A stretch of DNA of 64,000 nucleotides from Segatella copri. GTDB lineage: Bacteria > Bacteroidota > Bacteroidia > Bacteroidales > Bacteroidaceae. The stretch spans positions 34,740 through 98,739 of the forward strand of contig CAUFXJ010000010.1 of NCBI GenBank assembly GCA_959596915.1, written 5' to 3'. How positions within the stretch are numbered: the stretch's first letter is position 1; every line of letters begins with the position of its first letter. The position numbers were made by a program, and so were the translations under genes. Positions 1 to 59,292 of this stretch are shown here, one piece after another. The notes under the pieces are model-generated. The model made no database searches. It saw nothing but the letters and a program-made list of their open reading frames with translations, and was not told the DNA's origin.

Positions 1-111
1 GTACTTTTGTGCTCGGAATTGAGGTGATGGCACCGATGTTTCAGCAAAACAATATGAATTAAGTACAGAACTTTATACTTATAATATTCATTAATATAAA
101 ATTTAGCGAAT

Positions 112-813: not shown

Positions 814-828
814 TAAGGAGATACAGAT

Positions 829-1842: not shown

Positions 1843-1866
1843 TTTCTTTGAGATACAAAACATATA

Positions 1867-1904
1867 AAAGCCTTGAGAATCAACTGATTCTCAAGGCTTT
1901 TTTC
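1867..1904 (+). terminator. rho-independent terminator hairpin (aagccttgagaatc..gattctcaaggc + T6)
   Basis: Perfect 13-bp inverted repeat followed by TTTTTT, directly after the GGGtGRT stop codon. Confidence 0.75.
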
Positions 1905-1910
1905 TTTATT

Positions 1911-2010
1911 TATCCTACTGGAATAATCCAATATCCTACTGGAATAAAAAAATATCTCCGAAAGATATTTTTTTATCTTTCGGAGATATTCTTCTATCTT
2001 TCGGAGAAAA
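1911..2010. repeat. intergenic repeat cluster: 2x direct 'atcctactggaataa' and 3 copies/inversions of palindromic 'tatctttcggagatat'
   Basis: Read directly in the sequence. The same 'tatctttcggagatatt' core recurs as tandem 21-bp repeats at 54566-54625. Confidence 0.8.
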
Positions 2011-2036
2011 TAATTTATCCTACAGTATTTCTATTC

Positions 2037-3536
2037 TTATCTAACCAGTTTTCTAATTTTCCTAAAACTAAACGATGTACTCATGAGTACAATGATTACG
2101 CCAATCAGCCAGTAAAGCCAATCACGATAACTGATCATGAAAACCAGGAACAACATCAAGAGCAGAATCAGAAGCTGAAAGATACAGAATCTGAAACCAA
2201 GAGCGGATAACCGATAACCATAAACGGCTCTGCTGAAAGCCAATACTGCTAAGGTCTCTATGGCATAAGCAACGGCAATACCCCCTCCTACTCCTCTCAA
2301 TCCATCTAACTGATAGCCAGCTATTTCACAGATTATCAGCAAGATAACACAAAAACTTTCCTGAATGAGAAATAGCCTGGAATCGCCTCTTGACAACGGG
2401 AGATATTCTATCGGAAGATAAACGGCCTTGAACAACATGGCAACAGCAGCAAGCTGAGTCATCTGAAGCATCCCCATAAACTGGGCATTGTATAATATCG
2501 GAATAATGAGAGGCAGACCTAAAATGATAGCTGCAACGATAGGCCCCAGCAACAGGACATTCATTTCAAGCTGGCGGTTCACACAGAGATTGCGCTCTTT
2601 AACAGACTCCTCGTTTTTTCTGGAACCCGAAATGCCGGAGAGACGGGGATAAAAATCCTGATCCATGACCGAGAACACCATTCCCGCATAAACAAAGACA
2701 ATCGTTATACCGGCATTGAAAAGTCCAACAACTTCCAGATTGCCTTGTTGGTTCAAAAAGGCACGAATCAGAAATTCGCATCCGCTATTCATCAACCCCG
2801 AAAGTACAAATGCCCCGCCAAGTCGCAAAAGTGGGAAACCTGCAACTAGCGTCATTTTTCGCATATTTACGCCCCACCGTACAACTCGTCGGGAATATCG
2901 AAAATTCAGAGCCCATTGCATAAATGCCAAAATAAACAGAACGGGCAGAATACCTCTCTCACCAAATATCCAATAAACCGGAACCGAAACCAAAAGCAGA
3001 AGAATAGCCAGAAGACTTGCCTGCATCGCCAACGCACGCAACTGTCCGGTAGCTTTCAGAATGGCTGTTTCACCTCCAGCCAGAATCGTGAAGAAAATGG
3101 TTGGTGCCAGGAGAATGAAATGTAGCGTATGATTGCCCCAGGAAAAAGTAAACCCATTGAGTAACGGACCCAGAAGTACACAGACGATGGCTCCGAAAAA
3201 TGCAGCAAGCAGACTATAGGTGCGGACAAGAAGAACCGCCCCGGCGATATCAGCCTTTTCGGACTGCGATTCATCTGCAGCATGTTCCTTTTCAGAAATA
3301 AATTTAACACCACTTGTAGGAATGCCGAAATTACACGCAGAACTGAGAACAGAAATCGTTGAGCTGAAAAGAGACAGCAGTCCCATTCCAGAAGGTCCGA
3401 GGAAGAACGCCGTAAATTTATTGCGCAAAACTCCTACAAGAATTCCCAATCCTTGCACACTGCCAAACAATCCTGTATATTTCAGAATATGCGAATAACT
3501 GTTTTCCTTTTTATCACCCATAATCAAAAGAAACAA
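2037..3536 (-). CDS. oligosaccharide/polysaccharide flippase (Wzx/MOP superfamily) membrane protein
   Basis: ~14 predicted TM helices with polysaccharide-biosynthesis-protein-like topology and length. The true start may be the internal MGDKKEN. Confidence 0.6.
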   Translation of the reverse strand: MFLLIMGDKKENSYSHILKYTGLFGSVQGLGILVGVLRNKFTAFFLGPSGMGLLSLFSSTISVLSSACNFGIPTSGVKFISEKEHAADESQSEKADIAGAVLLVRTYSLLAAFFGAIVCVLLGPLLNGFTFSWGNHTLHFILLAPTIFFTILAGGETAILKATGQLRALAMQASLLAILLLLVSVPVYWIFGERGILPVLFILAFMQWALNFRYSRRVVRWGVNMRKMTLVAGFPLLRLGGAFVLSGLMNSGCEFLIRAFLNQQGNLEVVGLFNAGITIVFVYAGMVFSVMDQDFYPRLSGISGSRKNEESVKERNLCVNRQLEMNVLLLGPIVAAIILGLPLIIPILYNAQFMGMLQMTQLAAVAMLFKAVYLPIEYLPLSRGDSRLFLIQESFCVILLIICEIAGYQLDGLRGVGGGIAVAYAIETLAVLAFSRAVYGYRLSALGFRFCIFQLLILLLMLFLVFMISYRDWLYWLIGVIIVLMSTSFSFRKIRKLVR

Positions 3537-3611
3537 AAAAAAGGTTGGATTTCCCGAAAGAGAAATTCAACCTTTATACTTTAAAATCTCAAAAGAAGAT
3601 TCTGTCGAAGA

Positions 3612-4142
3612 TTAAGCCTCAGCTGGAGCCTCCTCTGCAGGAGCTTCCTCAGCAGCCTTAGCCTCTGCCTCAGCAGCAGCTGCAGCAGCCTTCTTATCAG
3701 CTACCTTCTTAGCGATTGCTTCGTTCATCTTCTTTTCAGCCTCGAGCTCCTTAGCAGCAGCTTCCTTCTTTGCCTTAGCATCGCCCTCGCGAACAGCAGA
3801 AATCTTAGCTTCCTTGCTATTCTTCCAAGCGTCGAAACGCTTCTGAGCCTCAGCATCGTCGAATGCGCCCTTCTTAACGCCACCCTTGAGGTGCTTCATC
3901 AAGTAAACGCCCTCGCCCTTGAGGATGTTGCGAACTGTGTCTGTTGGCTGTGCACCTGTCTCTACCCAGTAGAGTGCGCGCTCGAAATTCAAATCTACAG
4001 TAGCTGGATTGGTATTAGGGTTGAAAGTACCAATCTTCTCAGTAAATTTACCATCACGTGGTGCTCTAACGTCAGCGATTACGATGCTGTAGAAAGCATA
4101 GCTTTTACGACCGCCGCGCTGCAATCTGATTTTTGTTGCCAT
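3612..4142 (-). CDS. rpsP: 30S ribosomal protein S16 with long Ala/Glu/Lys-rich C-terminal extension
   Basis: N-terminus [33 protein letters not shown] is the canonical S16 signature. The C-terminal A/K/E tail is typical of Bacteroidetes S16. Confidence 0.9.
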
Positions 4143-4281
4143 TTTTAAATCTTAATTTTAATTTAATTTATAATGAGGTTTGAATTTTATGCTGCCATCT
4201 CGTGACAGCGGGTGCAAAATTACTACTTTTATTTGAATTGAGCAAACTTTTATCGATATTCAAATGCTTTTTTAGCATTTT

Positions 4282-4749
4282 TTATCTGATTCGGTCTGCT
4301 GCTCTCAAGAGTTTGATGTCATCGTTCACACCTTTCATTGCCATCCATTCGAATATGATTGCTACCAAAGGAAGGCAAGCGGCAAACTGAAACTTCATCG
4401 TTCCTTCTGCTTCAGGAACAGGAATCAAGCCCATGAACATCACGATATAATCTACATACCATAAACCTGCAAAAAGCATGGCAAGTGAACAGAGTGATTT
4501 CTGAAGCTTCAGATTCTTGTACAAAAAGATGTTTACCAATGCTATGATGGCTGAAACGGCGAGCAGAAGGAACAGAGGAACACAAGTAGTTGAAATCTGC
4601 ATTCCTGCCTCCCCTACCACTCCGAGGTTATAAACCATAGTGTCTCCTCCCATCGTCTTAGCTGCGATACTGGCGATAGGAAGGAAAAGACAGATAGCAA
4701 TGGCGATGACAGCAAAGAGCAGAAATAATGTCTGTTTACGCTGTATCAT
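4282..4749 (-). CDS. small integral membrane protein, function unknown
   Basis: 4 hydrophobic helices. The ORF as listed overlaps the upstream gene, so the internal start MIQRKQTLFLLFAV is used. Confidence 0.45.
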   Translation of the reverse strand: MIQRKQTLFLLFAVIAIAICLFLPIASIAAKTMGGDTMVYNLGVVGEAGMQISTTCVPLFLLLAVSAIIALVNIFLYKNLKLQKSLCSLAMLFAGLWYVDYIVMFMGLIPVPEAEGTMKFQFAACLPLVAIIFEWMAMKGVNDDIKLLRAADRIR

Positions 4750-4763
4750 ATAGCTCTGGAATA

Positions 4764-5114
4764 TTAAATTTCGCTCTCGTGAACCATTGGTGCAGATGTC
4801 TTGGTAGGATCGCGCCAATAAATATTATTCTCAATAAACTCTTCTGTAGCGAGCAAAGTTGGCTTTGGCAACTTCTCGTAGTAGCGAGAGATTTCAATCT
4901 GTTCGCGGTTCTCAAAAACTTCCTCCAAAGAATCGTTATAAGAAGCAAACTCCTGAAGTTTCTTGCTCAACTCCTGCTTGATTTCGATAGAAATCTGATT
5001 AGCGCGCTTTGCAATGATAGCTACGCTCTCGTAGATATTATGGGTATCATCGCAGAGATCCATAATGTTGCGAGTTACTGTGTTTACTGGTGCCTTTGAT
5101 TTTTTGAAATCCAT
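4764..5114 (-). CDS. putative RNA polymerase omega-like subunit (Rpb6/RpoZ-like, Bacteroidetes type)
   Basis: ~115 aa acidic protein, with the RAxQI-like motif (AIIAKRANQISIE) characteristic of RpoZ. Synteny with bamD, as in Bacteroides. Confidence 0.45.
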   Translation of the reverse strand: MDFKKSKAPVNTVTRNIMDLCDDTHNIYESVAIIAKRANQISIEIKQELSKKLQEFASYNDSLEEVFENREQIEISRYYEKLPKPTLLATEEFIENNIYWRDPTKTSAPMVHESEI

Positions 5115-5170
5115 AATTATAGTACTATTATTATTATATTGTTTTTACCTTATTATATATATGCTTTTTT

Positions 5171-6058
5171 TTAATTGGCATTATTGCCAAGCTGGTCGAG
5201 AGCTGACTCCGGATGCTCTTTCTCGTACTGCTTGCACTTCTCAATATACTTCTCGGCAAGTGCACGGTCCTTTGAATCAGGATATTCGTTGATAAAGCCA
5301 TAACACTCATCCTCAGCATCCTGATAGCGCTCCAGCTGCTTTTTCTCGACACTCATCTTTGCCAGTTCGTATTTACCTTTCATGATGAGCGATGCAAACT
5401 CCTCGCGTCGGTTGCTGTAAGGATAATCCTTAAGCGCATTCTGTGCAGTTACGATACAAGCCTCATAATTATTGCCTCCGCTGGTACAGTTGCCGAAATA
5501 GGTGCCCATATCAAAATAGAGCTTGGCACTCTTATACTCCTTCTCAACCAAGAGGTCCTGAAGAGCAAAAAGGCGGTTTGTAGCCTGCTGCTTGAGTCGG
5601 GCATCCGGATAAAGATCCAGAAACTCCTGGAAGGCTGCGATGGCTGTAATCGTGGTACTCTGGTCAAGACGAGGCTCTGGAGCATTCTGATACAGACTCT
5701 CTCCCACAAAGTACTTTGCATTTTCAGCAAACTTACCTTTAGGATAAGAAGAGTAATACTTCTTGAAATACTCTGCAGCAGTCTCATAATCCTTCATACC
5801 ATACTCGGCCATAGCCAGCATGTACAAACATTCCTCACCCTCGGTAGAACCTTTCTTCATCGTTACCAGTTCCTGCAGAAGAGGAATGGCACGGGAATAC
5901 TTGCCCTGGGCATAGCTCTGCTTGGCGTACTCATACTTATAAGTATAATCGCCTGATTTCAATACCTGGTTATATTCGTGGGCACAACTCGACAAGAGCA
6001 ATGCAACACACGATGCAATAAGAGTCAATTTTTTCATAATTCTCATTTTGAACTGCAA
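5171..6058 (-). CDS. bamD: outer membrane protein assembly factor BamD-like TPR lipoprotein
   Basis: Signal peptide plus lipobox (LIASCVALLLSSC), TPR-like repeats, ~290 aa. Lies adjacent to the rpoZ-like gene. Confidence 0.6.
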   Translation of the reverse strand: MQFKMRIMKKLTLIASCVALLLSSCAHEYNQVLKSGDYTYKYEYAKQSYAQGKYSRAIPLLQELVTMKKGSTEGEECLYMLAMAEYGMKDYETAAEYFKKYYSSYPKGKFAENAKYFVGESLYQNAPEPRLDQSTTITAIAAFQEFLDLYPDARLKQQATNRLFALQDLLVEKEYKSAKLYFDMGTYFGNCTSGGNNYEACIVTAQNALKDYPYSNRREEFASLIMKGKYELAKMSVEKKQLERYQDAEDECYGFINEYPDSKDRALAEKYIEKCKQYEKEHPESALDQLGNNAN

Positions 6059-6195
6059 AGTTACTCATAATTTACTTATTATCAAAAGAAAAGATACATT
6101 TTTTCGTAAAAAATTAATCTTTATAACGATTAATGGCGTTTTTTTTGTAATTTTGCACCTTGAAACAGAACTTTTGAGAAGAAATCAGGAAGAAA

Positions 6196-8241
6196 ATGGA
6201 TTTTAAGATTACATCAAAATATAAGCCGACTGGCGACCAGCCGCAAGCCATCAGGCAACTCACAGAGGGGGTGCTTGAAGGAGACCCTGCACAGGTGTTG
6301 TTGGGTGTAACCGGCTCGGGTAAAACCTTTACGGTGGCAAACGTGATTGCCAACGTGGGGAAGCCTACGCTCATCTTGAGCCACAACAAGACTCTTGCTG
6401 CCCAACTGTATCAGGAGATGAAGGGTTTCTTCCCTGAGAACGCTGTAGAATATTATGTTTCATACTACGACTATTATCAGCCGGAAGCTTATCTGCCAAC
6501 GACTGATACATATATAGAAAAAGACCTCGCCATCAATGATGAAATAGACAAGTTGCGACTCGGTGCTGTTTCTGCCCTTCTCTCGGGCAGAAAGGATGTC
6601 ATCGTTGTCTCATCCGTATCGTGCATCTATGGTATGGGCGGACCTGTGGCGATGCAGGAGAACATCATCAAGATTCATCGCGGGCAGCGACTCGACAGAA
6701 ATGAATTTCTGAGAAAACTCGTTGATGCACTTTACGTTAGAAATGACATAGAACTGCAACGTGGCAACTTTAGAGTGAAAGGCGAAACGGTTGACATCTT
6801 TATGGCTTACAGCGATCATGTTTTGCGCGTAACATGGTGGGACGATGAGATTGACAGTATCGAAGAAGTGGATTCGCTCACTTATCACCGCCTTGCCTCG
6901 TTCGAAGATTACGAGATTTATCCAGCCAACCTTTTCGTAACAACAAAAGAACAGCAGGAAAGTGCCATTCGCAGAATTCAGGACGACCTGGTTAAACAGG
7001 TAGAATTCTTCAAGAGTATTGGAGATGGAATCAAGGCACAGCGCATCAAGGAACGTGTAGAATATGATATGGAAATGATCAAGGAATTGGGCCACTGTTC
7101 GGGCATCGAGAACTATTCCCGTTATTTCGATGGCAGACATGAAGGCGAACGCCCGTATTGCCTGCTCGATTTCTTCCCTAAAGATTTCCTGCTTGTGGTT
7201 GACGAGAGCCATGTGAGCATCCCGCAGATTGGAGCCATGTATGGAGGCGACCGGGCACGAAAGAAGAACCTGGTAGAATATGGTTTCCGTTTGCCTGCAG
7301 CCTTCGATAACCGTCCGCTGAAATTCGAGGAATTTCACGATCTCATTCCGCAGGCCATCTACGTAAGTGCAACTCCGGCAGACTATGAATTGAGAGAAGC
7401 CGAAGGCGTGGTTGTAGAACAGTTGATTCGTCCTACAGGACTCCTGGACCCGGAAATAGAAGTCCGTCCAAGTGAGAATCAGATAGATGATCTTCTGGAT
7501 GAAATATTAACAAGAACACACCGCAACGAGCGAGTTCTGATTACGACTCTTACAAAGCGTATGGCAGAAGAACTCACCGAGTTCCTGCTCAACCACAACG
7601 TAAAGGCTGCCTATATCCACAGTGATGTGGCAACCTTAGACCGAGTAAAGATCATGAACGATCTACGTGCTGGTGTATACGATGTACTGGTGGGTGTCAA
7701 CCTGTTACGAGAAGGACTCGACTTGCCGGAAGTTTCGCTTGTAGCTATTCTCGATGCAGACAAGGAAGGCTTCCTTCGCAGTCACCGTTCTCTGACCCAG
7801 ACGGCAGGCCGTGCAGCCCGAAACGTGAACGGAAAGGTAATCATGTATGCAGACAACATCACAGACAGCATGCAGAAAACGATAGATGAAACTGCCCGCC
7901 GCCGAAGCATCCAGTTGAAATACAATGCAGACCATGGCATTACACCAAAACAGATTGTGAAAGCAATAACCTCAGCTCTGCCTACTAGCAAGGAAGAAGG
8001 AGCAAAGATTGTTCCGATGGGAGCCGAGGGTTCCAAGCCTCGCGTTTACGTGGAACCGGAAAGTGCAGCCTTCGTTGCCGATCCTATCGTGCGCAGTATG
8101 AGCAAGGAAGAACTGGAGAAGAGCATTGCCAATACTACAGCATTGATGAAGCAAGCAGCCAAAGACCTCGACTTCATGCAAGCTGCCCAATATCGCGATG
8201 AAATCATCCGATTGCAGAAGGAATTGGAAGAAAAGGGATAA
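6196..8241 (+). CDS. uvrB: excinuclease ABC subunit B
   Basis: Walker A GVTGSGKTFT, helicase motifs, the beta-hairpin region, and a C-terminal UvrB/UvrC interaction motif (AAQYRDEIIRLQKEL). Confidence 0.95.
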   Translation: MDFKITSKYKPTGDQPQAIRQLTEGVLEGDPAQVLLGVTGSGKTFTVANVIANVGKPTLILSHNKTLAAQLYQEMKGFFPENAVEYYVSYYDYYQPEAYLPTTDTYIEKDLAINDEIDKLRLGAVSALLSGRKDVIVVSSVSCIYGMGGPVAMQENIIKIHRGQRLDRNEFLRKLVDALYVRNDIELQRGNFRVKGETVDIFMAYSDHVLRVTWWDDEIDSIEEVDSLTYHRLASFEDYEIYPANLFVTTKEQQESAIRRIQDDLVKQVEFFKSIGDGIKAQRIKERVEYDMEMIKELGHCSGIENYSRYFDGRHEGERPYCLLDFFPKDFLLVVDESHVSIPQIGAMYGGDRARKKNLVEYGFRLPAAFDNRPLKFEEFHDLIPQAIYVSATPADYELREAEGVVVEQLIRPTGLLDPEIEVRPSENQIDDLLDEILTRTHRNERVLITTLTKRMAEELTEFLLNHNVKAAYIHSDVATLDRVKIMNDLRAGVYDVLVGVNLLREGLDLPEVSLVAILDADKEGFLRSHRSLTQTAGRAARNVNGKVIMYADNITDSMQKTIDETARRRSIQLKYNADHGITPKQIVKAITSALPTSKEEGAKIVPMGAEGSKPRVYVEPESAAFVADPIVRSMSKEELEKSIANTTALMKQAAKDLDFMQAAQYRDEIIRLQKELEEKG

Positions 8242-49978: not shown

Positions 49979-50182
49979 CAGATAGCAGTCGCCTAATATG
50001 AGTCCAGTTAAGATTGTGTACGAACTCGTACGCTTTTCCAAAATCAGGAAACAGAATATAGAAATTCCGATAATGTTAGAGATTGTTGAATGTTGAGTGG
50101 TCTATATGCCACGATGAAAAGGTGGCGTATAGACCCTTGATTATATGGTGATATTCGTAATCTACATCTCCGCTTTCTGTTT

Positions 50183-50269
50183 TTTATGAATTGCTCAGAT
50201 TCTTAATGATATCTAAAGGCAGCTGGGTAGCCTTGGCAACCTGTTCGGCTGAAAGTCCCATTGCCAGCA
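50183..50269 (-). pseudogene. 29-codon remnant of an Rpn-family gene 3' end
   Basis: Translates to NMLAMGLSAEQVAKATQLPLDIIKNLSNS*. This parallels the intact neighbour's C-terminus NMLADGVDINQIMKYSGLTQEQIEKLK*. Confidence 0.55.
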
Positions 50270-50287
50270 TATTCTTAGCTATTAAGC

Positions 50288-50327
50288 AAATTCCCCCATC
50301 CTGCTTTTGATGGCAGGATGGGGGAAT
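50288..50327. terminator. perfect 16-bp stem / 8-nt loop hairpin (aattcccccatcctgc-ttttgatg-gcaggatgggggaatt)
   Basis: Read directly. Lies between the Rpn gene stop and the Rpn remnant. Confidence 0.7.
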
Positions 50328-50355
50328 TCTTATCTGTTACCTCTAAGATAATATC

Positions 50356-51264
50356 TTATTTCAATTTTTCTATCTGTTCCTGGGTAAGACCGGAATACTT
50401 CATAATCTGATTGATGTCAACGCCATCAGCAAGCATGTTCCTGGCAATATCAAGGCTTCGCTGGTTCATACCTTCAGCTCTACCCTTTTCCAAGCCTTCC
50501 TTCATTCCCTTTTCCATACCTTCAGCTATACCTTCACGCTTAGCAGTGTCTACGGAATTCTTGATGTCGCGATATGCCATCTTGCTGGTCTCGTACTCCC
50601 TCATTTCCTGAGGAGTAAACTTGGCTATCTCGGCTTCCTCGAAGAGGCGGTCGAAGACTTTGTCGCACAGCTCCTTCGGACGCTGGGTAAGCTTATAGAG
50701 GTTCTTCAGAGCATAGAGCCACTTCTCGTAGAGCGTATCCAGTTCTTCCAGGGGTTTGTTGAACTTGGAAATCTCTACATAGATATATTCGAGCTTGTCG
50801 TAAAATACTTTGTGGGTAGCTGTGTCGCACAACTGCACATGATGGCGGATTTTCTCCTTGTCGAAGGCGTCCTCGTTCATGCTGAAGTTGAGCAGGGCTA
50901 CGGTATAGACATGATTGAGCTTGAAATCCCAGTCATTCCCCTTAGGTGCCTGCTCACGGATAGGAAAGGTTGAGTAGAAAAGGGCGCGATCCTTGAAATA
51001 CGTCTGGTAGGCATTCTGCATTTCTACGATGAACTTCTCGCCGTTTTCGCCCTCGCAATATACATCAAAGATGGCTCTTCGGTCGGTATATACATCTCCC
51101 ACGTGCTCCGGGTTCAGATACGATACGTCCTTCACAACCTGTTTGCCATTAAACAAGCTGTTGAGGAAGCAAATGAGCAAATCCTTGTTCATTGCTGTTC
51201 CAAAAATTCGCTTGAAACCGAAGTCGGTCAGCAAGCTGATGTATCTTTCTTCTACCTGTTTCAT
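50356..51264 (-). CDS. Rpn-family recombination-promoting nuclease / putative transposase (PD-(D/E)XK, YhgA-like)
   Basis: N-terminus MKQVEERYISLLTDFGFKRIFG, typical of the Rpn/Transposase_31 family. The C-terminal degenerate EGM/EKG repeats are also typical. Confidence 0.75.
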   Translation of the reverse strand: MKQVEERYISLLTDFGFKRIFGTAMNKDLLICFLNSLFNGKQVVKDVSYLNPEHVGDVYTDRRAIFDVYCEGENGEKFIVEMQNAYQTYFKDRALFYSTFPIREQAPKGNDWDFKLNHVYTVALLNFSMNEDAFDKEKIRHHVQLCDTATHKVFYDKLEYIYVEISKFNKPLEELDTLYEKWLYALKNLYKLTQRPKELCDKVFDRLFEEAEIAKFTPQEMREYETSKMAYRDIKNSVDTAKREGIAEGMEKGMKEGLEKGRAEGMNQRSLDIARNMLADGVDINQIMKYSGLTQEQIEKLK

Positions 51265-51354
51265 ACGCTTTATGTTTTTATTTTCTTTTGCAAAGATACG
51301 CTGAATATTTGTAACTTCCAAATTTTTAGGGCTGTTTTTTTCATTGAGGAGTGG

Positions 51355-51595
51355 AAAGTCTTTTTACTTATCCCTTCACCTCCCTTCACCACCCTTCACC
51401 CTTAACTATCTGACCCACAAAATATTAAACAAAAAGGTGAAGGGTGAAGGGTTGAAAACTCTTTTATATATATACGCGTGAAGGGTAAGGGTAAAAACCG
51501 AAAAAAAGACCCTAGGGTCAAAAATCGCAAAATCCATAAAATAAAGAATATAATATAGAGTTTAAAATATACCCTTCACCCTTCACCTCGTCATT
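51355..51595. repeat. iteron-like array: >=9 copies of CCCTTCACC/GGTGAAGGG in both orientations plus 12-bp palindrome gaccctagggtc
   Basis: Read directly. Copies at 51364-51392 (x3, +), 51435-51452 (x2, inverted), 51477-51490 and 51574-51589 (x2, +). Confidence 0.8.
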
Positions 51596-51713
51596 TTTCA
51601 ACTTTTTCTTCCGACAGGCAATACAAAACCAAACATCATCTTCAAAATACCCCCAAAAAGGGGCGCAAAAATGCTGCGTTAAAAACTTTAACCTAGGTTA
51701 TTCTTTGTAAAAA

Positions 51714-51733
51714 GCGAGCTCTATAGAGCTCTC
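51714..51733. promoter_or_regulatory. perfect 16-bp palindrome gagctctatagagctc upstream of small HTH-like gene
   Basis: Read directly, ~60 bp upstream of the start at 51792. Confidence 0.45.
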
Positions 51734-51791
51734 CGCCTAAGTAAAACATTTTGTTTACCTTCGCAACATATTAACAACAAAGAATAAAACA

Positions 51792-52226
51792 ATGAAAGAT
51801 TTGCAGAAATTTATGACAGAACTTGAAGATGAAGTCAGATTTAAGCTGGCTATCGCAAAGACATGTGGCGTATCACCAACTATGATTCGCAAAGAAACTG
51901 GAGGAAAGTCCAATATCGATAAGAGGATTGATAACATGACGCTCATACCAGAGTACATATTCGCTATGGATAGAGCCATCAAAACCATTCTCATGAAAAA
52001 AGATGATGATGATGCCTTCGAAGGTAAAACCTGGGTTCATGAAGAAAATGTCCATCATAAAACAAGATTCCAGTATTATTGCGATGAAGTGGGCATATGG
52101 GAACAGAACAAAGGTTCGGTATACTGGAGCGAACATAACAGAGCATGGAGCTACTGGAGAGAAACCCTTTCCTACAAGAAAATAACTAAAAAACTTGGAA
52201 AATTATTAAAAGATTCAAACTCATAA
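51792..52226 (+). CDS. hypothetical small protein with possible HTH (..LAIAKTCGVSPTMIRK..)
   Basis: ORF immediately upstream (13 bp) of the primase-like gene. A weak HTH-like segment. Confidence 0.4.
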   Translation: MKDLQKFMTELEDEVRFKLAIAKTCGVSPTMIRKETGGKSNIDKRIDNMTLIPEYIFAMDRAIKTILMKKDDDDAFEGKTWVHEENVHHKTRFQYYCDEVGIWEQNKGSVYWSEHNRAWSYWRETLSYKKITKKLGKLLKDSNS

Positions 52227-52239
52227 AATCCAAAAAGAA

Positions 52240-54555
52240 ATGAAAAAGATTAAACCCACAAACGAGACCGGAAATAACCCGGAAACAGAAGAGGAGAAAG
52301 AGGCCTTGCCCTCATTTTTCACTAACCTGTTTTCCTCTGCCAGCAACCCGCTCCCTAACAGAGCGGTGCTGGAGTACAACATCATGCATTCGGCACCGGT
52401 AAAAGCCAATACCGAAGGCTACAGGGCGATGATGAAGGTGGACAAGAGAACGGCTGAGGACATCAAGCACCGGCTGCCCTGCATCACTCCCAGCGTGCAG
52501 CTCAAAGGTAATGCCAAGAAGCTGACCGACTTCAGGAAGGAAACCTTCTGGCTGATGCTCGATTATGATGACGTGCCTCCCGAAGACATCGCAGATCTTA
52601 AGAAAAAAGCCCTGAAACAGCGCTTCACCATGGTCTTCTACATCACCGTCTCGGGCAAGGGATTCCGCATCCTGCTCAGATATATGCGGCCTGAAGGATG
52701 CAATCTCACTGCCACCGAACTCCACCTGCTCGCCATCAGAAAAGCCATGAGCATGTACGATAAACTGCTGGGTATCAGCAGCGACAAACAATGCCAGGAT
52801 ATGGTGAGAAGCTGCGGACTGGCTTACGACCCCGAGGCTTACTTCAACTGGAATGCCGAAGTTCTCCCCATCACCCGGGAGGAGGTGGAGAACTTCGAAA
52901 AAGCTACAAAGCAACAGGAGGAACAGAAAAGGAAAAGGCAGACGGAGGCTGAAAAAACCAGAAAGAAAAGCCCGCGCAAACAGGAAGACGAGGCGCCAGC
53001 CAAAACGCTCACCACCGAAGAGATTCTGCAGTATGTAGACAAACTGGCGGAGAGCTGGGAAGAGCGGTTTGAGGAGCATCATCACAACAGCTACGTAGTG
53101 AGATACGCCACATTCTGCCTCTGTTTCGGAGCCGAAAAGGAGGAGGCTGTGAAACACATGGCAGATAAGTTTGGCGGCGAATATGCCGATACCGAGCGGG
53201 TGGCACGGGAGATTTACAAGCATACCGAGCGGCTGGGAACCTGGAAGATAAGACAGCAGGGAGATGAGGAGCAGAAACGCTATACCAGCATGAGAGCACT
53301 GCTGGGATGGCTGGGAGCCCGATATGAAATGCACCACAACACGCTGAGCAACCAGTATGAAGTGCGCGCCATCAACACCGGAGAGAAACTCTATCTCGAC
53401 TGGACCGAAGTGGATACCCGGGTGAGCAATTCCCTGTTCGTGAAGATGGAACTGGATAACATCTGCACCACCCAGAAAAAGCTGGATACAGTAATCAGAA
53501 GTAACTTCAGTCCCGAATTCAACCCCATGGAGGAATATCTGAAGAGTCTGCCGAAATGGGACCGAAAGACTGACCATATCGCAGAATTGGCCCATCGGGT
53601 AACCGTGATGCAGACCGGCGGTTACCGCCATACGGAGGAGGATTTTGCCTATGCCTTCAGGAAATGGCTGGTCAACATGGTGGTTTGCTGGGTTCGCCCC
53701 GATGTCACCAACCAGTCTATCATGGTTTTCGTAGGCAAGGGCGGCATCTTCAAGACCACGTTTTTCGACCATCTTCTGCCGGCCCATCTGCGCAAGTATT
53801 TCGCCAACGATTCTACGGGCGACTACAAGAACAAGGATTTCCTGCAGATGTGTGCCAGCAAGGCGATAGTGTGTCTCGATGAGTTCAGCTGTCTGCGCGG
53901 CAAGAACCTGGATTCCTTCAAGAGCAACATCACAAAGCGCAACATCAGCATGCGAATCCCTTATGCCGAGTGGGACTGCATTCTGCAGAACAATGCGGGG
54001 TTCTGTGCCACGAGCAATGAGATTCATATCATCGATGATGACGAGAACCGCCGTTTCCTCATCTGGCGCATCGAGAAGATCAAGAGTCCCATCGACTTCC
54101 CCTTCAATTACGAGGGCATCTACTCCCAGGCTGTGTCACTGGCTCAGGAGGTGATAGAGAAGCGCCGGAGGGGTGAGCACTGCGACTGGGTTTACTGGTT
54201 TACGAAGGAGGAGAACGAGGAGATTCAGCGCCACAATCTTTATTTCCGTGTAAACAACTACATAGCCGAGCGCATCAACAAGTTCTACCGTGTTCCTGAT
54301 GCCGATACGCCGCCCGAGTTCTGCAAGTTTGTTACGGCGAGTGATGTGATGGAGCGCATCTGCACGAACCCCGCCTTCCGCCAGTCGATGTCGAACAAGG
54401 ATATATCGATGTTCATGGAGGCGCTGGGGTTCAAGAAGATTCACCGCAAGACGGGCAACGGCTGGAAGGTGATAGAAATGCGTCCGGACGAGATAGAGAA
54501 CAACCAGAAGATGGATGGCAGCGAGAATATTCCGCCCGAAGATCTCCCATTTTAG
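52240..54555 (+). CDS. primase/NTPase-like protein of mobile elements (VirE/DUF3987-P4 primase C-terminal P-loop type)
   Basis: 771 aa. A central Lys/Glu/Arg-rich linker, a C-terminal P-loop-like VFVGKGGIFKTTFFD and a downstream DExx-like LDEFS. Architecture typical of Bacteroidales mobile-element primases. The antisense 571-aa ORF was rejected. Confidence 0.5.
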   Translation: MKKIKPTNETGNNPETEEEKEALPSFFTNLFSSASNPLPNRAVLEYNIMHSAPVKANTEGYRAMMKVDKRTAEDIKHRLPCITPSVQLKGNAKKLTDFRKETFWLMLDYDDVPPEDIADLKKKALKQRFTMVFYITVSGKGFRILLRYMRPEGCNLTATELHLLAIRKAMSMYDKLLGISSDKQCQDMVRSCGLAYDPEAYFNWNAEVLPITREEVENFEKATKQQEEQKRKRQTEAEKTRKKSPRKQEDEAPAKTLTTEEILQYVDKLAESWEERFEEHHHNSYVVRYATFCLCFGAEKEEAVKHMADKFGGEYADTERVAREIYKHTERLGTWKIRQQGDEEQKRYTSMRALLGWLGARYEMHHNTLSNQYEVRAINTGEKLYLDWTEVDTRVSNSLFVKMELDNICTTQKKLDTVIRSNFSPEFNPMEEYLKSLPKWDRKTDHIAELAHRVTVMQTGGYRHTEEDFAYAFRKWLVNMVVCWVRPDVTNQSIMVFVGKGGIFKTTFFDHLLPAHLRKYFANDSTGDYKNKDFLQMCASKAIVCLDEFSCLRGKNLDSFKSNITKRNISMRIPYAEWDCILQNNAGFCATSNEIHIIDDDENRRFLIWRIEKIKSPIDFPFNYEGIYSQAVSLAQEVIEKRRRGEHCDWVYWFTKEENEEIQRHNLYFRVNNYIAERINKFYRVPDADTPPEFCKFVTASDVMERICTNPAFRQSMSNKDISMFMEALGFKKIHRKTGNGWKVIEMRPDEIENNQKMDGSENIPPEDLPF

Positions 54556-54565
54556 GAAATTCTGC

Positions 54566-54625
54566 TTCGGAGATATTTCCGTATCTTTCGGAGATATTTC
54601 CGTATCTTTCGGAGGGATTTTATTA
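54566..54625. repeat. tandem 21-bp repeats (cggagatatttccgtatcttt x ~2.7)
   Basis: Read directly. The core tatctttcggagatatt is shared with the repeat at 1951-2010. Confidence 0.8.
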
Positions 54626-54699
54626 TGATTCGGAGAGATTTTATACTACCAGGCAGAAGAAAGAAGCAACTGACAAAAACAGACTAAAAAGAACAAATT

Positions 54700-54912
54700 A
54701 TGATAGAAGACAGAAGTTACGGGAAGGCAGAGCTCGCCATGCTCTACTTTCCCACCGCTACCCCCAGGGTAGCGCTCAACCGGCTGGTGAGATGGATCAA
54801 CCGGTGCCCCGAGCTCAAGCAGAGCCTCTGTTCGGGCTACGCCGGCAAGTTTTCCCACTTCTACACCCGGCAACAAGTAGCAGAAATCATCGAATTTCTG
54901 GATGAACCATAA
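54700..54912 (+). CDS. DUF4248 domain-containing protein
   Basis: 70 aa with the family-typical ..LAMLYFP..RVALNRLVRWINRCPEL.. Commonly adjacent to primase genes in Bacteroidales elements. Confidence 0.6.
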   Translation: MIEDRSYGKAELAMLYFPTATPRVALNRLVRWINRCPELKQSLCSGYAGKFSHFYTRQQVAEIIEFLDEP

Positions 54913-54998
54913 AAAAAACACCCTGGAAGGGAATGCATACAACACACTATGCATATCCCTTTCAGGGTGAGTTTATTATAGGAAAAAATACCCGTTTT

Positions 54999-56600
54999 TT
55001 AAACGCTTTTGCCCTTAGACTTCCAGTCGTCAATCGTCCCCGTCTTAGACGAGAAATTGCAGCCTATCAGGTAAATCGTTCTGTTGTCTGTAGCATACTC
55101 ACGGGCATATCCTTTTTCCTCGATTTGTTTCAAGGCTTCAGTCGCTGACCCATCACGTTTAAATTCGAAGATATATACAAACATTGGGGTCTCAATAATG
55201 CAATCAACCCGTCCTTCACTTTGCTCCTTTTCTATTAGAACGGTAAAACTGCTTATCATGCGAATCACCAGATAGAAGGTATATTGAAAGTATCGCTCTT
55301 TTTCCCGTTCGTCATCTTTGCGTCGCTGACTATATGGTATACTGGCGAAGAAGGAAGTGAGTAATTTCTCCAATTTGTCACAATCTCCCATCTTCATCGT
55401 ATTAACAACTTCTACGACCCAAGCGTCAGGCGATTCCTTGGGCTTCAGATAGTTGGCAGCCACCATGGTTACGAAGCCAGCTTTTACTTCATCGTTTGGA
55501 AAATCCAAGAGATAAGAATCGGTATCCATGTTCCAATCCTTAATGGTGAGATAACCACTCTGGTAAATCATTGGCAATGGAGCCTCTGTATCCGCCTTGT
55601 AATCTATAAAACTGCTGGTAGGATAAAATTTCCCTGTCAGTTCATTGAGGTTTTCGTCGAAGTGAGCTAATAAGCGGACCAGATAAGTAGGCGAACCTGT
55701 ACGGAACCAGAAATCACTCAGGATTTTCTTACTCAGTGAGTTCAAGATACTGAAAGGATTGTAGATGTCGAGCATGCTTGGGCTGAAATGGTAACCGTCA
55801 TATTTGCGCTTGAGCCGATATTTCATCTCATCCTCAGACACTTTATATCTTGCAGCCATTGCCTTGATTTGCTCATCAAAGACAGAATACAGTTCCTCTT
55901 CCGTGATGCCGCAAAGAGCCTCGTAGCGGTCGTCCATGCTGATGTCATCTGGTTGGTTGAAACCACTGAATACGCTTACTTGCGAGAACTTGGTAACACC
56001 AGTCAACAGCACGAATTTCAAATCTTTGTCAGCAGCCTTGAAGACACTGTAGAAACCTTTCATAATCTCGCGATGTCGGTCTTCCAGCAAACGTTCGTTG
56101 CCTTCAGAATCGAAGGTCTTTAACCCTGTGTCTAAAACATCCAGTAAAGGTTTGTCATATTCATCAATCAGGACAACGGCGCCAAGTCCTGTCTTTTCAT
56201 GGGCAGCTTTCAAAACAGCCATAAATCTGTCTCCCAAGGTGTTGGCCAATGGGTTTCTGCCATAATTCAGTTCTTGGGTTTCAACAAAAGTCTGCAAGGT
56301 TTTTTCCAATTCGCCTGCCTGTGTGAAATTCTTGCCGTTGAAATCTATATGAAAAACCGGATATTGCTTCCATTCTTTTTCTAACTGTTCGATGGCAAGT
56401 CCTTTAAACAGTTCTTTCTTTCCTTGGAAGTAGCATTCCAGGGTAGAAATCAACAACGACTTTCCGAATCGTCTTGGACGACTCAGAAAATATATATTCC
56501 CATTGTGTACTAAATCATAAATCAAGTCTGTCTTGTCAAGATAGACATAACCATCATCTCTGATTTTTCCAAAGTCTTGTATACCTATAGGATATTTCAT
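54999..56600 (-). CDS. AAA-ATPase-like (DUF1703) + PD-(D/E)XK nuclease-like domain protein
   Basis: N-terminal motif ..FGKIRDDGYVYLDKTDLIYDLV..LSRPRRFGKSLLISTLE.. (the Bacteroidales 'AAA-ATPase-like' family), with a C-terminal PDDEXK_9-like region. ~533 aa. Confidence 0.7.
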   Translation of the reverse strand: MKYPIGIQDFGKIRDDGYVYLDKTDLIYDLVHNGNIYFLSRPRRFGKSLLISTLECYFQGKKELFKGLAIEQLEKEWKQYPVFHIDFNGKNFTQAGELEKTLQTFVETQELNYGRNPLANTLGDRFMAVLKAAHEKTGLGAVVLIDEYDKPLLDVLDTGLKTFDSEGNERLLEDRHREIMKGFYSVFKAADKDLKFVLLTGVTKFSQVSVFSGFNQPDDISMDDRYEALCGITEEELYSVFDEQIKAMAARYKVSEDEMKYRLKRKYDGYHFSPSMLDIYNPFSILNSLSKKILSDFWFRTGSPTYLVRLLAHFDENLNELTGKFYPTSSFIDYKADTEAPLPMIYQSGYLTIKDWNMDTDSYLLDFPNDEVKAGFVTMVAANYLKPKESPDAWVVEVVNTMKMGDCDKLEKLLTSFFASIPYSQRRKDDEREKERYFQYTFYLVIRMISSFTVLIEKEQSEGRVDCIIETPMFVYIFEFKRDGSATEALKQIEEKGYAREYATDNRTIYLIGCNFSSKTGTIDDWKSKGKSV

Positions 56601-56929
56601 ATTGTTGCTTTTTATTGAATTTTTGGCAAAGTTACGAAAAAAGTTGGTATCTGCAAAATAATGCGGAATAAAATGTCTTTATTTTCAGATAAAAGCAATT
56701 CTTATGCTATATATCCCTGCGCTCCGCTCTACATCGTTGAAAGTTCAGTAACATAAAAAAATACCACTTTTTTCAACCTTTTTTTCCCGAATCCCTGCAA
56801 ATCGCACAAATCGCATAGTTGGGGGTTCGGGAATGTTGTATCTTTGTATCGTCAATCAGAGAGGTTGATGCAGCAACGGTTTCGGCGGAGACACTGACTG
56901 CTTTTTACTAAAACTAAATTTTTAAAAGT

Positions 56930-57502
56930 ATGATTCTCATCAAATTAGCGAAGAACAAGAACAAGACAATCAAGGAAGCGTATGGCAAGTATTATGCGCG
57001 ACCAGTAGTAACAGAAACCATCGGTATCGATGAACTCGCCGAACACATGGCGAGCCACAACACCCCGTTCTCGAAGGGTGCCATCAAGGGCCTTCTCTCC
57101 GATATGGTGAGCTGTGTGAAGGAGCTCGTGCTCCAGAATAAGGCAGTGAAGATAGACAACCTCGCCATCTTCTCCATCGGCATCATCAACAAGATGGGAG
57201 CCGCCAGCATCAAGGAGTGGAGCCTCGCCAAGTTTGTAGAAGGCTACCGCCTCAGAGCCCGTGCTACCGGCAAGCTCAGCAACACCCAGCTCTCTCTCGA
57301 TGCCAACGCCAAGAACGCCATGGATCTCCTCAACTCTAGCGAGAGCGCTGCAGGCGATACCACCACTGGCGATACCACACAGGGCGGCGGAACCACTGAG
57401 GGCGGCGGAACCACTGGGGGCGGCGGAACATCACAAGGCGGCGGTACATCACAAGGCGGCAGCACCGACGGAACAGGCGACAACGGAGACGGCCTGGAGT
57501 AG
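56930..57502 (+). CDS. HU-family (Bac_DNA_binding-like) DNA-binding protein with Gly/Thr-rich repetitive C-terminal tail
   Basis: N-terminal HU-like fold (..KLAKNKNKTIKEAYGKYYARPV..). The C-terminal 50 aa is TTGGG repeats encoded by ~4 tandem 18-21-bp units at ~57383-57466. Confidence 0.6.
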   Translation: MILIKLAKNKNKTIKEAYGKYYARPVVTETIGIDELAEHMASHNTPFSKGAIKGLLSDMVSCVKELVLQNKAVKIDNLAIFSIGIINKMGAASIKEWSLAKFVEGYRLRARATGKLSNTQLSLDANAKNAMDLLNSSESAAGDTTTGDTTQGGGTTEGGGTTGGGGTSQGGGTSQGGSTDGTGDNGDGLE

Positions 57503-57788
57503 TGATCCATCTCTCAAATATGCGAAACGACAGAAGAAGGAAGGAGTGAACTGACCGGCGACAGGGATATTCCGAAGGCACAAAGCGGCTGGTTTTCATC
57601 CTGACGATTACGGATAAACAGCAAATCATAATGACCCAAGAACCTGCCTTTTACGGGTATCCGGGCTGGCAGTTTCTCCCCCGCCCTTCTTCTTCCAGAA
57701 ACGCTTACTGAAACTAAATTTCAACCACTAAAACAAGCATGTGACTATCATTATCCACTTAGTATTAATCATTAAAAAACAAAGCAAA

Positions 57789-57878
57789 ATGAAAAAAGTA
57801 AATTGGAAAACCATCATCAATTTCCTCATCACGGTATTAACAGCTGTAGCCAGCTCATTCTGTGTACAGAACTGCTAA
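57789..57878 (+). CDS. 29-aa single-TM peptide (MKKVNWKTIINFLITVLTAVASSFCVQNC), holin-like?
   Basis: Unlisted short ORF with ATG start and a hydrophobic helix. Ends 16 bp before the amidase ATG. Confidence 0.35.
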   Translation: MKKVNWKTIINFLITVLTAVASSFCVQNC

Positions 57879-57894
57879 AAGAAGGGAGGTTGCC

Positions 57895-58332
57895 ATGACA
57901 CAGAAACATCGTAGCATTTCACTCATCGTGATCCACTGTTCAGCCACGAGAGTGACTCAGGATTTCACATTCGAGCAGTTGGAGGCCTGCCATCTTGCCC
58001 GCGGTTTCAAGAGTATCGGCTATCATTATTACATCACGAAGGATGGTGTGGTATATCCGGGTCGTCCGGAATCGGAGGTAGGAGCCCATGCCCGTCATTA
58101 CAATGCCCACAGCATCGGCATCTGTTATGAGGGAGGTCTCGACAAGAACGGCAAGCCTGCCGATACGCGTACTCCAGCCCAGAATCAAGCTCTGTATTCG
58201 CTTCTGGAGAGCCTCAGCCTCTCCTATCCAGATGCAGAGATACTGGGCCATCGCGATTTGCCGAACGTTCACAAAGACTGTCCGTCGTTTGATGTCAAGC
58301 GATGGCTGAAGTTGGTAGATTTCCACATCTAG
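57895..58332 (+). CDS. N-acetylmuramoyl-L-alanine amidase (Amidase_2/PGRP, T7-lysozyme-like)
   Basis: Zinc-binding residues of the Amidase_2 fold (..IHCSAT..H..GYHY..CPSFD). Start chosen at MTQKH. Confidence 0.8.
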   Translation: MTQKHRSISLIVIHCSATRVTQDFTFEQLEACHLARGFKSIGYHYYITKDGVVYPGRPESEVGAHARHYNAHSIGICYEGGLDKNGKPADTRTPAQNQALYSLLESLSLSYPDAEILGHRDLPNVHKDCPSFDVKRWLKLVDFHI

Positions 58333-58910: not shown

Positions 58911-59292
58911 AATTGGATTGCATTGTATTTATTTTTTAAGTTGATTCAAGCCCCACAGGTAGTATTCCTGCGGGGCTTTTTCTTTTTCATCGGCGTTATA
59001 TGAACTATTTATCAGAAAAATCATATACGAAAATGGAAAAAATAGCATCAATTTGTAAGAATGTGAAAAAAAAAGTGCAGAATTAACATTTAAAAGAGGT
59101 TATTTTTCGAAAAATATGTTATCTTTGCAGAAGATAAGCTGCACTCGGCAATTTGAAAGCAAGCTTTCATTGCGCTCATTTGCATTATCTTTGCAAACTA
59201 TATATAGCAAGAACTTGCAGAAACATGCACAATAAAAAGCAAGAGCTTGCAGAAAAAAAATAGAATATAGAATACAAGAAAAAATAAACTTT

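Follow-up and report, generated by a model that had tools for sequence, protein, structure and literature searches.

What does a short array of inverted repeats do in the chromosome of Segatella copri, one of the most abundant human gut bacteria, where it stands ahead of a gene for a primase-helicase? The array is found in a 64-kb stretch of contig CAUFXJ010000010.1 (the window, to whose positions all bare coordinates refer), inside a 527-bp intergenic region with a gene for an Rpn nuclease on its left and, on its right, genes for a 144-aa open reading frame (ORF) and the 771-aa primase-helicase (Table 1). The answer tentatively favored here is that the array serves the adjacent protein, which combines PrimPol, superfamily 3 (SF3) helicase and predicted winged-helix parts, as its cognate initiator site of the origin type, within a chromosomal module that is present in multiple copies. 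A preliminary description of this DNA had seen an iteron-like array of at least nine units between an Rpn nuclease and a pair made up of a helix-turn-helix (HTH) protein and a primase, and had likened it to a replication or transfer origin of a plasmid or integrative and conjugative element (ICE), or to arm-type recombinase sites. The left and right neighbors are as described there. The HTH label of the 144-aa ORF is unsupported: this protein has no Pfam, NCBIfam, PHROG or PDB match, and its single-sequence model reaches a pLDDT of 54.

The array is real, conserved and beyond chance. Its unit, GGTGAAGGG, occurs exactly nine times in the window, seven times within 51372–51587 and twice elsewhere. 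At ≤1 mismatch, 30 matches are observed as compared to 10.8 ± 3.1 in shuffled sequences, and none of 100 shuffles reaches 30. Units in the minus orientation lie at 51372, 51382 and 51392, with a 10-bp phase, and at 51572 and 51579, where they overlap with a 7-bp phase; units in the plus orientation lie at 51436 and 51443. With two degenerate units (cGTGAAGGG and GGTAAGGGT) added to these seven exact ones, the earlier count of at least nine is borne out. Blocks B and D together form a perfect 18-nt inverted repeat (51435–51452 and 51571–51588) with arms that are 118 nt apart, and the interior between them, which includes a TA run (TATATATATA, 51465–51474), has an A+T content of 72%. No plausible coding sequence (CDS) covers the array region, as had been reported. 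The start of the helicase gene is ~650–870 bp downstream of the array in the window and 650–1190 bp downstream in other loci. Theta-type plasmid iteron origins of the Rep_3/RepA class consist of 17–22-bp direct repeats and DnaA boxes beside the rep gene. The array does not belong to this type: its units are 7–10 bp long and are present in both orientations, matches to plasmids are absent, and no DnaA box at ≤1 mismatch is found in 51265–51791, with a window-wide count that equals chance.

Loci were collected in two scans. A metagenome scan for the B..D architecture returned at least 119 loci, at least 105 of which are gut S. copri-like, and a protein-based scan of one genome per species returned 28 loci, all from the S. 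copri complex. The window locus itself belongs to this Segatella (Prevotella) copri complex and is syntenic and chromosomal in all strains compared. In over 100 loci of the complex, conservation reaches at least 90% in blocks A, B and D as well as in their AT-rich borders. Based on column identities computed over 107 distinct array sequences, the span of at least 90% identity comprises ~110 nt left of B, block A, the A–B spacer, B and the next 30 nt, the 35 nt before D, D itself and the TCGTCA that follows, and identity then drops to 40–50% right past D+8, which defines a sharp right boundary of the conserved element. Conservation peaks at the units and AT-rich borders and is lowest in the middle of the interior, where two alternative forms and hybrids of them (for example, L226) are observed among the 107 sequences. 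Of the 12-bp palindrome and AT-rich spacers on which the preliminary description had also relied, both are present in the window, and neither the palindrome nor the third G-block is conserved: the palindrome, GACCCTAGGGTC, occurs in a subset of arrays and is missing from type 2, and block C is found only in window-type and L129-type arrays, its place being taken elsewhere by GCGGCAAGG... The number of units differs between arms and between loci, with one to three in A, at a spacing of 9–10 bp, and two to three in D (three in L024); among the protein-scan loci, both A and D have two to three. Block B is invariant in the loci recovered via the protein, which were not selected for the array.

Two paralogous locus types are present per genome, both of them in strain G8, and the homology between their arrays starts at window position 51382. 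In both types, the array stays with the 144-aa/primase pair in the same position and orientation despite differing left neighbors. In type-2 loci, which encode diverged homologues of the 144-aa protein (69–76% identity), an AAA-ATPase_like/PDDEXK_9 gene lies upstream in place of Rpn; these loci retain A (two units), B, D and the AT-rich borders and are without block C and the palindrome. About 18 of the 28 protein-scan loci have enough upstream DNA, and in these the array is at a fixed distance and orientation except in L029 and in the paralogues of 46% identity. In L028 and L030, the homology breaks at block D. In ten same-species assemblies the array is almost invariant; this is hardly informative, as the entire region barely differs among them.

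The sequence of the unit changes with the lineage of the primase: it is GGTGAAGGG in S. copri types 1 and 2, GGTGACG in L240, CTGAAGGA in L039 and TTGGAGCCAC in L242. Positionally equivalent arrays adjoin primases at 38–58% identity. In L240 (58% identity), the order is CCGTCACC, 35 nt, GGTGACGTGACGGTGA, TAAAACTTT..ACGCGT, ~135 nt of AT-rich DNA and TCGTCACCGTCACC, and the AAAACT..ACGCGT of the AT-rich border is retained despite this level of divergence. In L039 (46% identity), CTGAAGGA units face CCTTCAG units across ~150 nt, and in L242 (42% identity), at least six TTGGAGCCAC units are present in both orientations. In L243 and L245, which are without the small ORF, the repeats are GGAAGTTAAGG arrays and three GTTCAGCC units. 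Between lineages, every copy on either arm changes in concert with the others. Taken with the unequal unit numbers, this concerted change makes unit-wise recognition by a co-evolving protein a simpler explanation than a strict hairpin. Judged from this comparison, a DNA stem-loop component, as in the plasmid pRN1, may exist alongside unit-wise recognition.

The same arms were considered as a structured RNA or single-stranded DNA element in which A, B and D form alternative hairpins (A:B or B:D), to serve as a leader or attenuator, a small RNA, or a DNA stem-loop. The region folds better than its shuffles (z of −4.9 and −4.3), the arms of L240 co-change such that 3 of 17 RNAalifold pairs are altered on both sides, and the origin of pRN1 is itself a stem-loop. 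In contrast, the RNAalifold covariation term amounts to 0.31 kcal/mol (~0), and the compensated pairs come from a single lineage in which all units changed in concert. The two arms have unequal unit numbers, and where the inverted repeat extends into the interior, differences between types are uncompensated. Neither an upstream promoter nor a conserved U-tract past D was found, and there is no Rfam match, either at permissive thresholds across 50000–53000 or at gathering thresholds in four orphan loci. An RNA or single-stranded DNA element is consequently rated as very unlikely. An inverted repeat with perfect 18-nt arms that enclose 118 bp of intergenic Bacteroidales DNA also brings to mind an invertible promoter segment (inverton) bounded by B and D. 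Some contigs do end near the array, an observation that was given no weight because these ends mismatch the repeat boundaries. With orientation scored relative to block A and the flanking genes, no inverted interior is observed in at least 105 metagenome loci and ~20 genome or European Nucleotide Archive (ENA) loci; a recombinase gene next to the segment and a consensus promoter within it are also absent. The inverton was rejected at the level of assemblies, and its probability is close to nil.

The neighboring protein is predicted to be an initiator-type helicase that consists of a PrimPol domain, an SF3 helicase part and a winged-helix part. Matches to Pfam, PHROG and PADLOC assign a BT4734_N (PrimPol) domain and a VapE/D5-like SF3 helicase domain (VapE/DUF5906) to the 771-aa chain. 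PADLOC returned only domain-level PrimPol matches, and a known defense system was rejected as an explanation. An AlphaFold2 (AF2) model based on an alignment of 26 sequences has a mean pLDDT of 81.8, and its C-terminus shows a β-H-H-H-β-β succession at residues 696–746 that corresponds to a predicted winged-helix topology (residues 696–748, nucleotides 54325–54483). In a Foldseek comparison against the PDB, the top match is the Rep protein of the Staphylococcus aureus pathogenicity island SaPI1 (PDB ID: 7PDS, E of 1.5e-14, ~445 of 453 residues aligned), followed by NrS-1, the PrimPol of African swine fever virus (ASFV) and poxvirus D5/E5. The sequence identity of the S. copri protein to SaPI1 Rep is ~14%.

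This structural match permits a comparison with origins of known architecture. The SaPI ori is composed of 6–12 penta- or hexameric iterons and an AT-rich center, with at least two iterons per side in opposite directions, and SaPI Rep is a self-loading helicase with a C-terminal winged helix that reads these iterons (PMC9371898). The S. copri locus resembles this arrangement in its short repeated units (5–7-nt core), in having at least two units per side of an AT-rich center in opposite orientation, in the adjacent SF3 helicase with its C-terminal winged helix (here predicted), and in a unit sequence that is specific to the initiator lineage. It differs from the SaPIs in that their ori is directly downstream of rep, whereas the S. 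copri array is upstream with the 144-aa ORF in between, and in that SaPIs are excisable and carry integrase and packaging genes, whereas the S. copri module is stably chromosomal without them. Orphan arrays, which are described below, are to our knowledge unknown for SaPIs.

A second point of comparison is pRN1, which has an origin of ~100 bp that forms a stem-loop with GTG/CAC motifs, a 21-nt stem and a 58-nt loop and requires symmetry of its arms (PMC4234260). Both pRN1 ORF904 and the alpha protein of phage P4 join a primase part to an SF3 helicase and a C-terminal winged helix (PMC2777425). Likeness to pRN1 extends to the prim/pol, SF3 helicase and winged-helix composition and to a small co-oriented ORF upstream in one operon (PMC2777425, PMC4234260). 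The 144-aa ORF thus occupies the position of the small repressor gene of the pRN1 orf56/orf904 pair. Both origins are inverted repeats, that of S. copri being an 18-nt stem of GTG-containing units around 118 nt. In contrast to the array, the origin of pRN1 lies downstream of its gene and is built without tandem units, and pRN1 is an autonomous plasmid of an archaeon (Sulfolobus). Similar replication operons of the pRN1 type are present in some bacteriophages. We know of no demonstrated specific binding site for ORF904. P4 alpha shares with the S. copri protein a primase, an SF3 helicase and a C-terminal winged-helix origin-binding domain; its primase, however, is of the DnaG type rather than a PrimPol, and P4 is an excisable satellite phage or plasmid. 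The second, distant iteron set of P4 (crr) is a precedent for extra copies of a site, and the P4 type I iteron TGTTCACC (equal to GGTGAACA) has GGTGAA in common with the S. copri unit. Overall, the array system is different from the known kind of iteron origin with a self-loading helicase in its position, its integrase-less chromosomal residence and its abundant orphan sites.

From the layout of the array, its conservation, its covariation with the primase lineage and the predicted fold of the protein, we infer binding, melting and replication along the following lines. The C-terminal winged helix would read the short unit with its core GTGAAGG. The opposed units of B and D, placed around the 118-bp AT-rich stretch, would position two helicase assemblies face to face, and the three helically phased units of block A would add cooperative binding. 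The AT-rich borders would melt, and the PrimPol domain would prime.

The array is the first part of a larger module that has the order array, 144-aa ORF, primase, 21-bp units, DUF4248, variable cargo, promoter, HU-HIG and amidase, and that is syntenic in lineages down to 38% primase identity. It also occurs alone. Among the matches listed, 89 metagenome loci have enough DNA on the right, and 33 of these contain the 144-aa/primase pair (28 complete and 5 internally deleted). Judged by their right flanks, arrays are dispersed over at least 17 contexts, D being in every case the side toward the gene. Orphan arrays lie 450–600 nt upstream of unrelated genes, which include those for a variable lipoprotein of 800 aa, an operon of the fimbrial type, a regulator of the AraC type accompanied by rhamnose genes, a BAX-inhibitor-like protein and a TonB-dependent receptor. 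One sample holds several contexts, and a genome therefore carries at least about five copies. In these orphan cassettes, the array is followed by four to seven tandem 21-bp units (TTCGGAGATATT..), a segment TTTCCCGAATCC..CAAATCGCACAAATCGCATAG and a −7 box TGTATCTTTG, and the cassettes show collinearity with three non-coding segments that are separated in the window module (51382–51593, 54556–54645 and 56754–56884). Because of this collinearity, the orphan arrays are read, from sequence comparison, as gene-less derivatives of the primase module that kept its three non-coding segments in order rather than as an independent element. The internally deleted modules share breakpoints, with 51769 joined to 52431–52563 and this in turn to 54532, and modules with the same breakpoints are found behind both kinds of left flank. 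The idea that the spacer of the orphan cassettes is a remnant of the 3′ end of the primase gene was rejected, as its alignment scores are at shuffle level.

Dispersal of this kind could also reflect a selfish or neutral mosaic intergenic repeat that has no specific partner, spread by recombination or transposition with its short repeats arising by slippage and its linkage to the primase being historical. The models for such a repeat are the BrickBuilt MITE (a miniature transposable element with inverted repeats), repetitive extragenic palindromes (REPs) and bacterial interspersed mosaic elements (BIMEs). BrickBuilt of Porphyromonas gingivalis is composed of a leader, 23-nt repeats and a tail that bears promoters in 19 copies (PMC4596501). 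The orphan cassettes, with a leader, 21-nt tandem repeats and a promoter-bearing tail, mirror it, and both are strictly intergenic, multi-copy elements of Bacteroidales with partial versions (PMC4596501). There is no sequence relationship between the two, and the S. copri cassette differs in its collinearity with a gene-bearing primase module and in that terminal inverted repeats were not found. REPs and BIMEs are likewise short inverted units in intergenic DNA, but the S. copri arms are 118 bp apart, with conserved AT-rich borders, an extra phased block and no RAYT-like gene. A mosaic repeat would agree with the modular build and the occurrence in at least 17 contexts, with the array standing alone (as in the window) or with 21-bp repeats and a promoter tail; with the sharp right and variable left boundaries; and with the mosaic interior forms, the hybrids of which suggest gene conversion. 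In addition, heptad arrays serve as ordinary extragenic palindromes in high-GC bacteria, and other MITEs populate the same loci. Against it, terminal inverted repeats and a target-site duplication are not seen at the element ends, the sole "empty" case being a replacement by another MITE. Conservation is uneven, with units and borders far above the middle. The orphan cassettes are collinear with the three separated module segments, and analogous arrays of other units persist beside primases at 38–58% identity. We regard a purely mosaic repeat as unlikely, though it deserves serious weight. Mobilization of the array by the Rpn gene in a RAYT-like manner was rejected, since no array is present on the other side of Rpn and most arrays have no Rpn nearby.

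The orientation of the array toward genes bears on a further possibility, that it is an operator or architectural array on which a module-encoded or global protein (the 144-aa protein, DUF4248, HU-HIG or another) loops or wraps AT-rich DNA, to control the divergent promoters and the genes past orphans without any replication. The Rpn promoter is of the textbook Bacteroides form, with a −7 box TATCTTTG at 51298–51291 and a −33 TTTG at ~51322–51319, 20 nt upstream, and the array abuts it in the window. The array is always upstream of, and co-oriented with, the downstream gene, and is followed by promoter-bearing segments; this fixed orientation is attributed to the promoter that the collinear cassette carries. 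A co-evolving repressor, too, would be expected to have lineage-specific units, and the neighboring 21-bp units are small palindromes typical of dimeric operators. However, 200–600 nt separate the array from the nearest start codon, none of it coincides with a consensus promoter, L243 and L245 have arrays without the small ORF, and no small protein with a demonstrated DNA-binding fold is present. A role as an operator appears improbable to a similar degree as a mosaic repeat.

Readings of the array as the transfer origin (oriT) of an integrated mobile element or as the arm-type sites of its integrase, both raised by the preliminary description, fared worse. Direct and inverted repeats at a homology boundary between loci would suit such sites. 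Nevertheless, these readings are unsupported because integrase, relaxase and mobilization or transfer genes were not found in the module in any lineage sampled, and the array has no match in 72,556 plasmids; we consider them remote. An origin of a plasmid or phage was also rejected, as the plasmid collection gave no match and the lone "phage" record (MT835724.1) is unannotated, unverified and contains housekeeping genes. This record (L046, 24.5 kb, "UNVERIFIED: Bacteriophage sp.") holds an orphan array together with genes for pyruvate:ferredoxin oxidoreductase (PFOR) subunits, a lolD-like ABC ATPase, CvfB, MatE and TOTE/Schlafen-type proteins, and looks like a fragment of a Prevotella chromosome rather than a phage. 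From the earlier likening to a plasmid or ICE origin, then, the resemblance to a replication origin stands, based on the layout, the adjacent initiator-type protein, the linkage between them and the lineage-specific units, and the plasmid or ICE context does not.

Several observations weigh against the array being an initiator site. Among the matches listed, 56 of the 89 scorable metagenome arrays (~60%) have no primase downstream. The array accompanies the 144-aa/primase pair, but it also behaves in part as the widespread, primase-independent repeat that would have spoken against the earlier proposal, being dispersed through the S. copri complex. With respect to the initiator gene, the array is on the upstream side, and it is the 21-bp palindromic units that lie past the stop codon, where an origin immediately downstream of or within the initiator gene would be expected. 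Nor is the site confined to an initiator that resides on a replicon of its own or on an excisable element: the genes annotated at 44.0–63.9 kb include no integrase, relaxase or transfer gene, genes for integration, excision, packaging and transfer were not found, and there is no sign of an episome. In L029, an intact primase (~90% nucleotide identity to the window gene) is accompanied by a MITE that replaced the array region. The A+T content of the interior, 72%, is little above the 65% of the remaining intergenic region. The module holds further repeat arrays (GAAGTTAAGG, CACAGATTT and the 21-bp units), and the region may be merely repeat-prone. Inverted (GGTGAAG)n arrays lie between housekeeping genes of high-GC bacteria (NDH-2/MFS, FtsK and YicC/Gmk), and the heptad itself is therefore not diagnostic.

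Table 1 Features of the array and of the surrounding module (window positions).
Feature	Position	Strand	Remarks
Rpn/PDDEXK_2 gene with promoter	50356..51322	minus	ATG at 51264; neighbor, outside the element
Block A	51372..51406	minus	three CCCTTCACC units, 10-bp phase, and overlapping degenerate CCCTTAAC
A–B spacer	51407..51435		75% A+T; conserved ..CTGAC.CACAAAAT.TTAAA.AAAAA; ≥85–90% column identity, 107 distinct sequences
Block B	51436..51451	plus	two overlapping GGTGAAGGG units, 7-nt period; left arm of inverted repeat
AT-rich border following B	51452..51479		TTGAAAACTCTTTTATATATATACGCG; ≥90% conserved; candidate unwinding segment
Block C	51477..51493	plus	degenerate cGTGAAGGGTAAGGG at 51477–51491; units cGTGAAGGG (51477) and GGTAAGGGT (51483)
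12-bp palindrome	51508..51519		GACCCTAGGGTC; variable middle of interior
AT-rich border preceding D	51536..51570		AAATAAAGAATATAATATAGAGTTTAAAATAT; ≥90% conserved
Block D	51571..51594	minus	two overlapping CCCTTCACC units (right arm of inverted repeat) and TCGTCA
Conserved 5′ region of 144-aa/primase operon	51661..51791	plus	common to all primase-linked loci
144-aa ORF	51792..52226	plus	first gene of pair
Primase-helicase gene	52240..54555	plus	771 aa; candidate initiator
21-bp tandem units	54556..54645	plus	four units, each a small palindrome (TTCGGAGATATTTCCGTATCT); directly past primase stop; second cis segment
DUF4248 gene	54700..54912	plus	70 aa; syntenic in all lineages
HU-HIG upstream segment	56754..56884	plus	TTTCCCGAATCC..CAAATCGCACAAATCGCATAG..TGTATCTTTG; third cis segment, re-used in orphan cassettes
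HU-HIG and Amidase_2 genes	56930..58332	plus	HU-HIG 56930–57502, Amidase_2 57862–58332; conserved right part of module

Heptads of the same kind were also encountered in unrelated DNA. In environmental contigs of high GC content (0.60–0.72), degenerate GTGAAGG arrays are present in inverted orientation between housekeeping genes (SpoT among them), at ~1680–1850 in L125 and L156, 900–1070 in L164 and 3380–3535 in L170, as well as in L195, L062, L095 and L103; these look like REP-type extragenic palindromes. In low-GC contigs that resemble virophages or polinton-like viruses (PLVs), with a Sputnik-type major capsid protein (MCP) and an A32-like ATPase, inverted (GGTGAAG)n arrays adjoin a gene for a D5/VapE-like helicase. 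Here, 7-nt tandem units are inverted around ~100 nt of AT-rich DNA, and further copies are spaced at 10–12 nt (L048, 1890–2120 and 4584–4730; L049, 2012–2357 and 4821–5051; L050, 9476–9725; L058, 3718–3870; also L137, L150 and L173). In L049, the helicase gene is flanked on both sides by inverted copies of ~350 bp. Common ancestry of the S. copri and virophage helicases was rejected, as no significant BLASTP similarity was found between them. With this result and the high-GC occurrences, the shared heptad is treated as an unexplained lead and not as evidence; the parallel could reflect a mode of DNA reading shared by the winged helices of these helicases.

Among the remaining parts of the module, the 144-aa ORF has 60 homologues, all of them Segatella-like and every one beside a primase. 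No consensus Bacteroides promoter was found in the 5′ region ahead of it (51661–51791). This region contains a hairpin, GAGCTC-TATA-GAGCTC, at 51716–51731, the pairing of which is kept through changes in both arms (GAGTCC/GGACTC in L011–L015 and GAGGGC/GCCCTC in L029), and which may be a conserved structure or a palindromic operator. The 21-bp units past the primase stop have the palindromic form GAGATAT..TATCT, and their position is conserved across primase lineages, with equivalents at 5763–5815 in L039. The segment between DUF4248 and HU-HIG (54913–56929) varies among strains of the same species (~9100–12400 in L001–L010), where it contains AAA-ATPase_like/PDDEXK_9, ORF6N, DUF1016/YhcG or unknown ORFs, and it resembles a slot of the module that takes up variable cargo. 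The HU-HIG upstream segment recurs before unrelated genes in other S. copri loci, and a TTCCCGAATCC motif is also found at 58855; this segment behaves like a shared or portable promoter region.

Other repeats and rearrangements are observed nearby. A 66-bp insertion just upstream of the Rpn ATG is present in 9 of 11 same-species loci (alignment A1, columns 155–220, in L001–L006 and L008–L010) and missing from the window (51264–51300) and L007. The direct repeat that bounds it, CTGCAAAGAT, is on the minus strand the −7 promoter box of Bacteroides. A related copy lies ahead of a SusC-like gene at ~59122–59200 of the window, and the insertion has the look of a small, MITE-like element, one that either duplicates a −7 box or carries it. 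The MITE that takes the place of the whole array region in L029 (~2640–2940) is a GC-rich, ~200-bp palindromic long hairpin. Several copies of this MITE can be present per locus, as at 2674–2874, 5964–6170, 6570–6760 and 7283–7466 in L030, and it is also found in L028. In L039, CACAGATTT arrays flank the module on both sides as direct copies (2230–2425 and 6089–6320). In type-2 loci (for example, L147 and L130), GGAAGTTAAGG arrays lie 250–450 nt left of block B, on the left side of the GGTGAAGGG array, and several orphan loci also have them on that side. L017, from a 222-kb metagenome contig, contains three tandem primase-DUF4248 units followed by a resolvase gene within positions 1–6922, and the GGTGAAGGG array is absent. 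L032 (CAVBFV010000336.1), binned as Lachnospiraceae, encodes a primase that is 97% identical to that of S. copri, an assignment that is probably due to binning contamination. L243 and L245 have capsule-type genes alongside the module.

The set of primase-helicase, DUF4248, HU-HIG and amidase genes is conserved across the Prevotella-like lineages sampled, and capsule-synthesis genes adjoin it in two of them. Neither a function for this set nor the repeat sequence in a relevant context was found in the literature searched. In a bolder version of the origin reading, which is speculative and quite improbable, the PrimPol-helicase modules of Prevotellaceae and Bacteroidales would be chromosomal, integrase-less replication units, with initiators that also act in trans on orphan origins, which lie within gene-less module derivatives before genes for surface proteins, transporters and regulators. 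Firing of these origins would locally over-replicate or remodel the loci and lead to heterogeneity in gene dosage or expression; put differently, the module together with its MITE-like derivatives would constitute a self-replicating mobile element of a new kind. If the array is a mosaic repeat only, it still constitutes a previously undescribed family that marks rearrangement boundaries and carries promoters in S. copri genomes. If, instead, it is the site of the initiator, it would represent a chromosomal initiator/origin pair without any integrase, and the orphans before surface and transport genes would prompt one to ask whether the initiator drives replication or regulation locally. In that case, the array and its operon would also offer a simple handle for replicating S. 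copri vectors.

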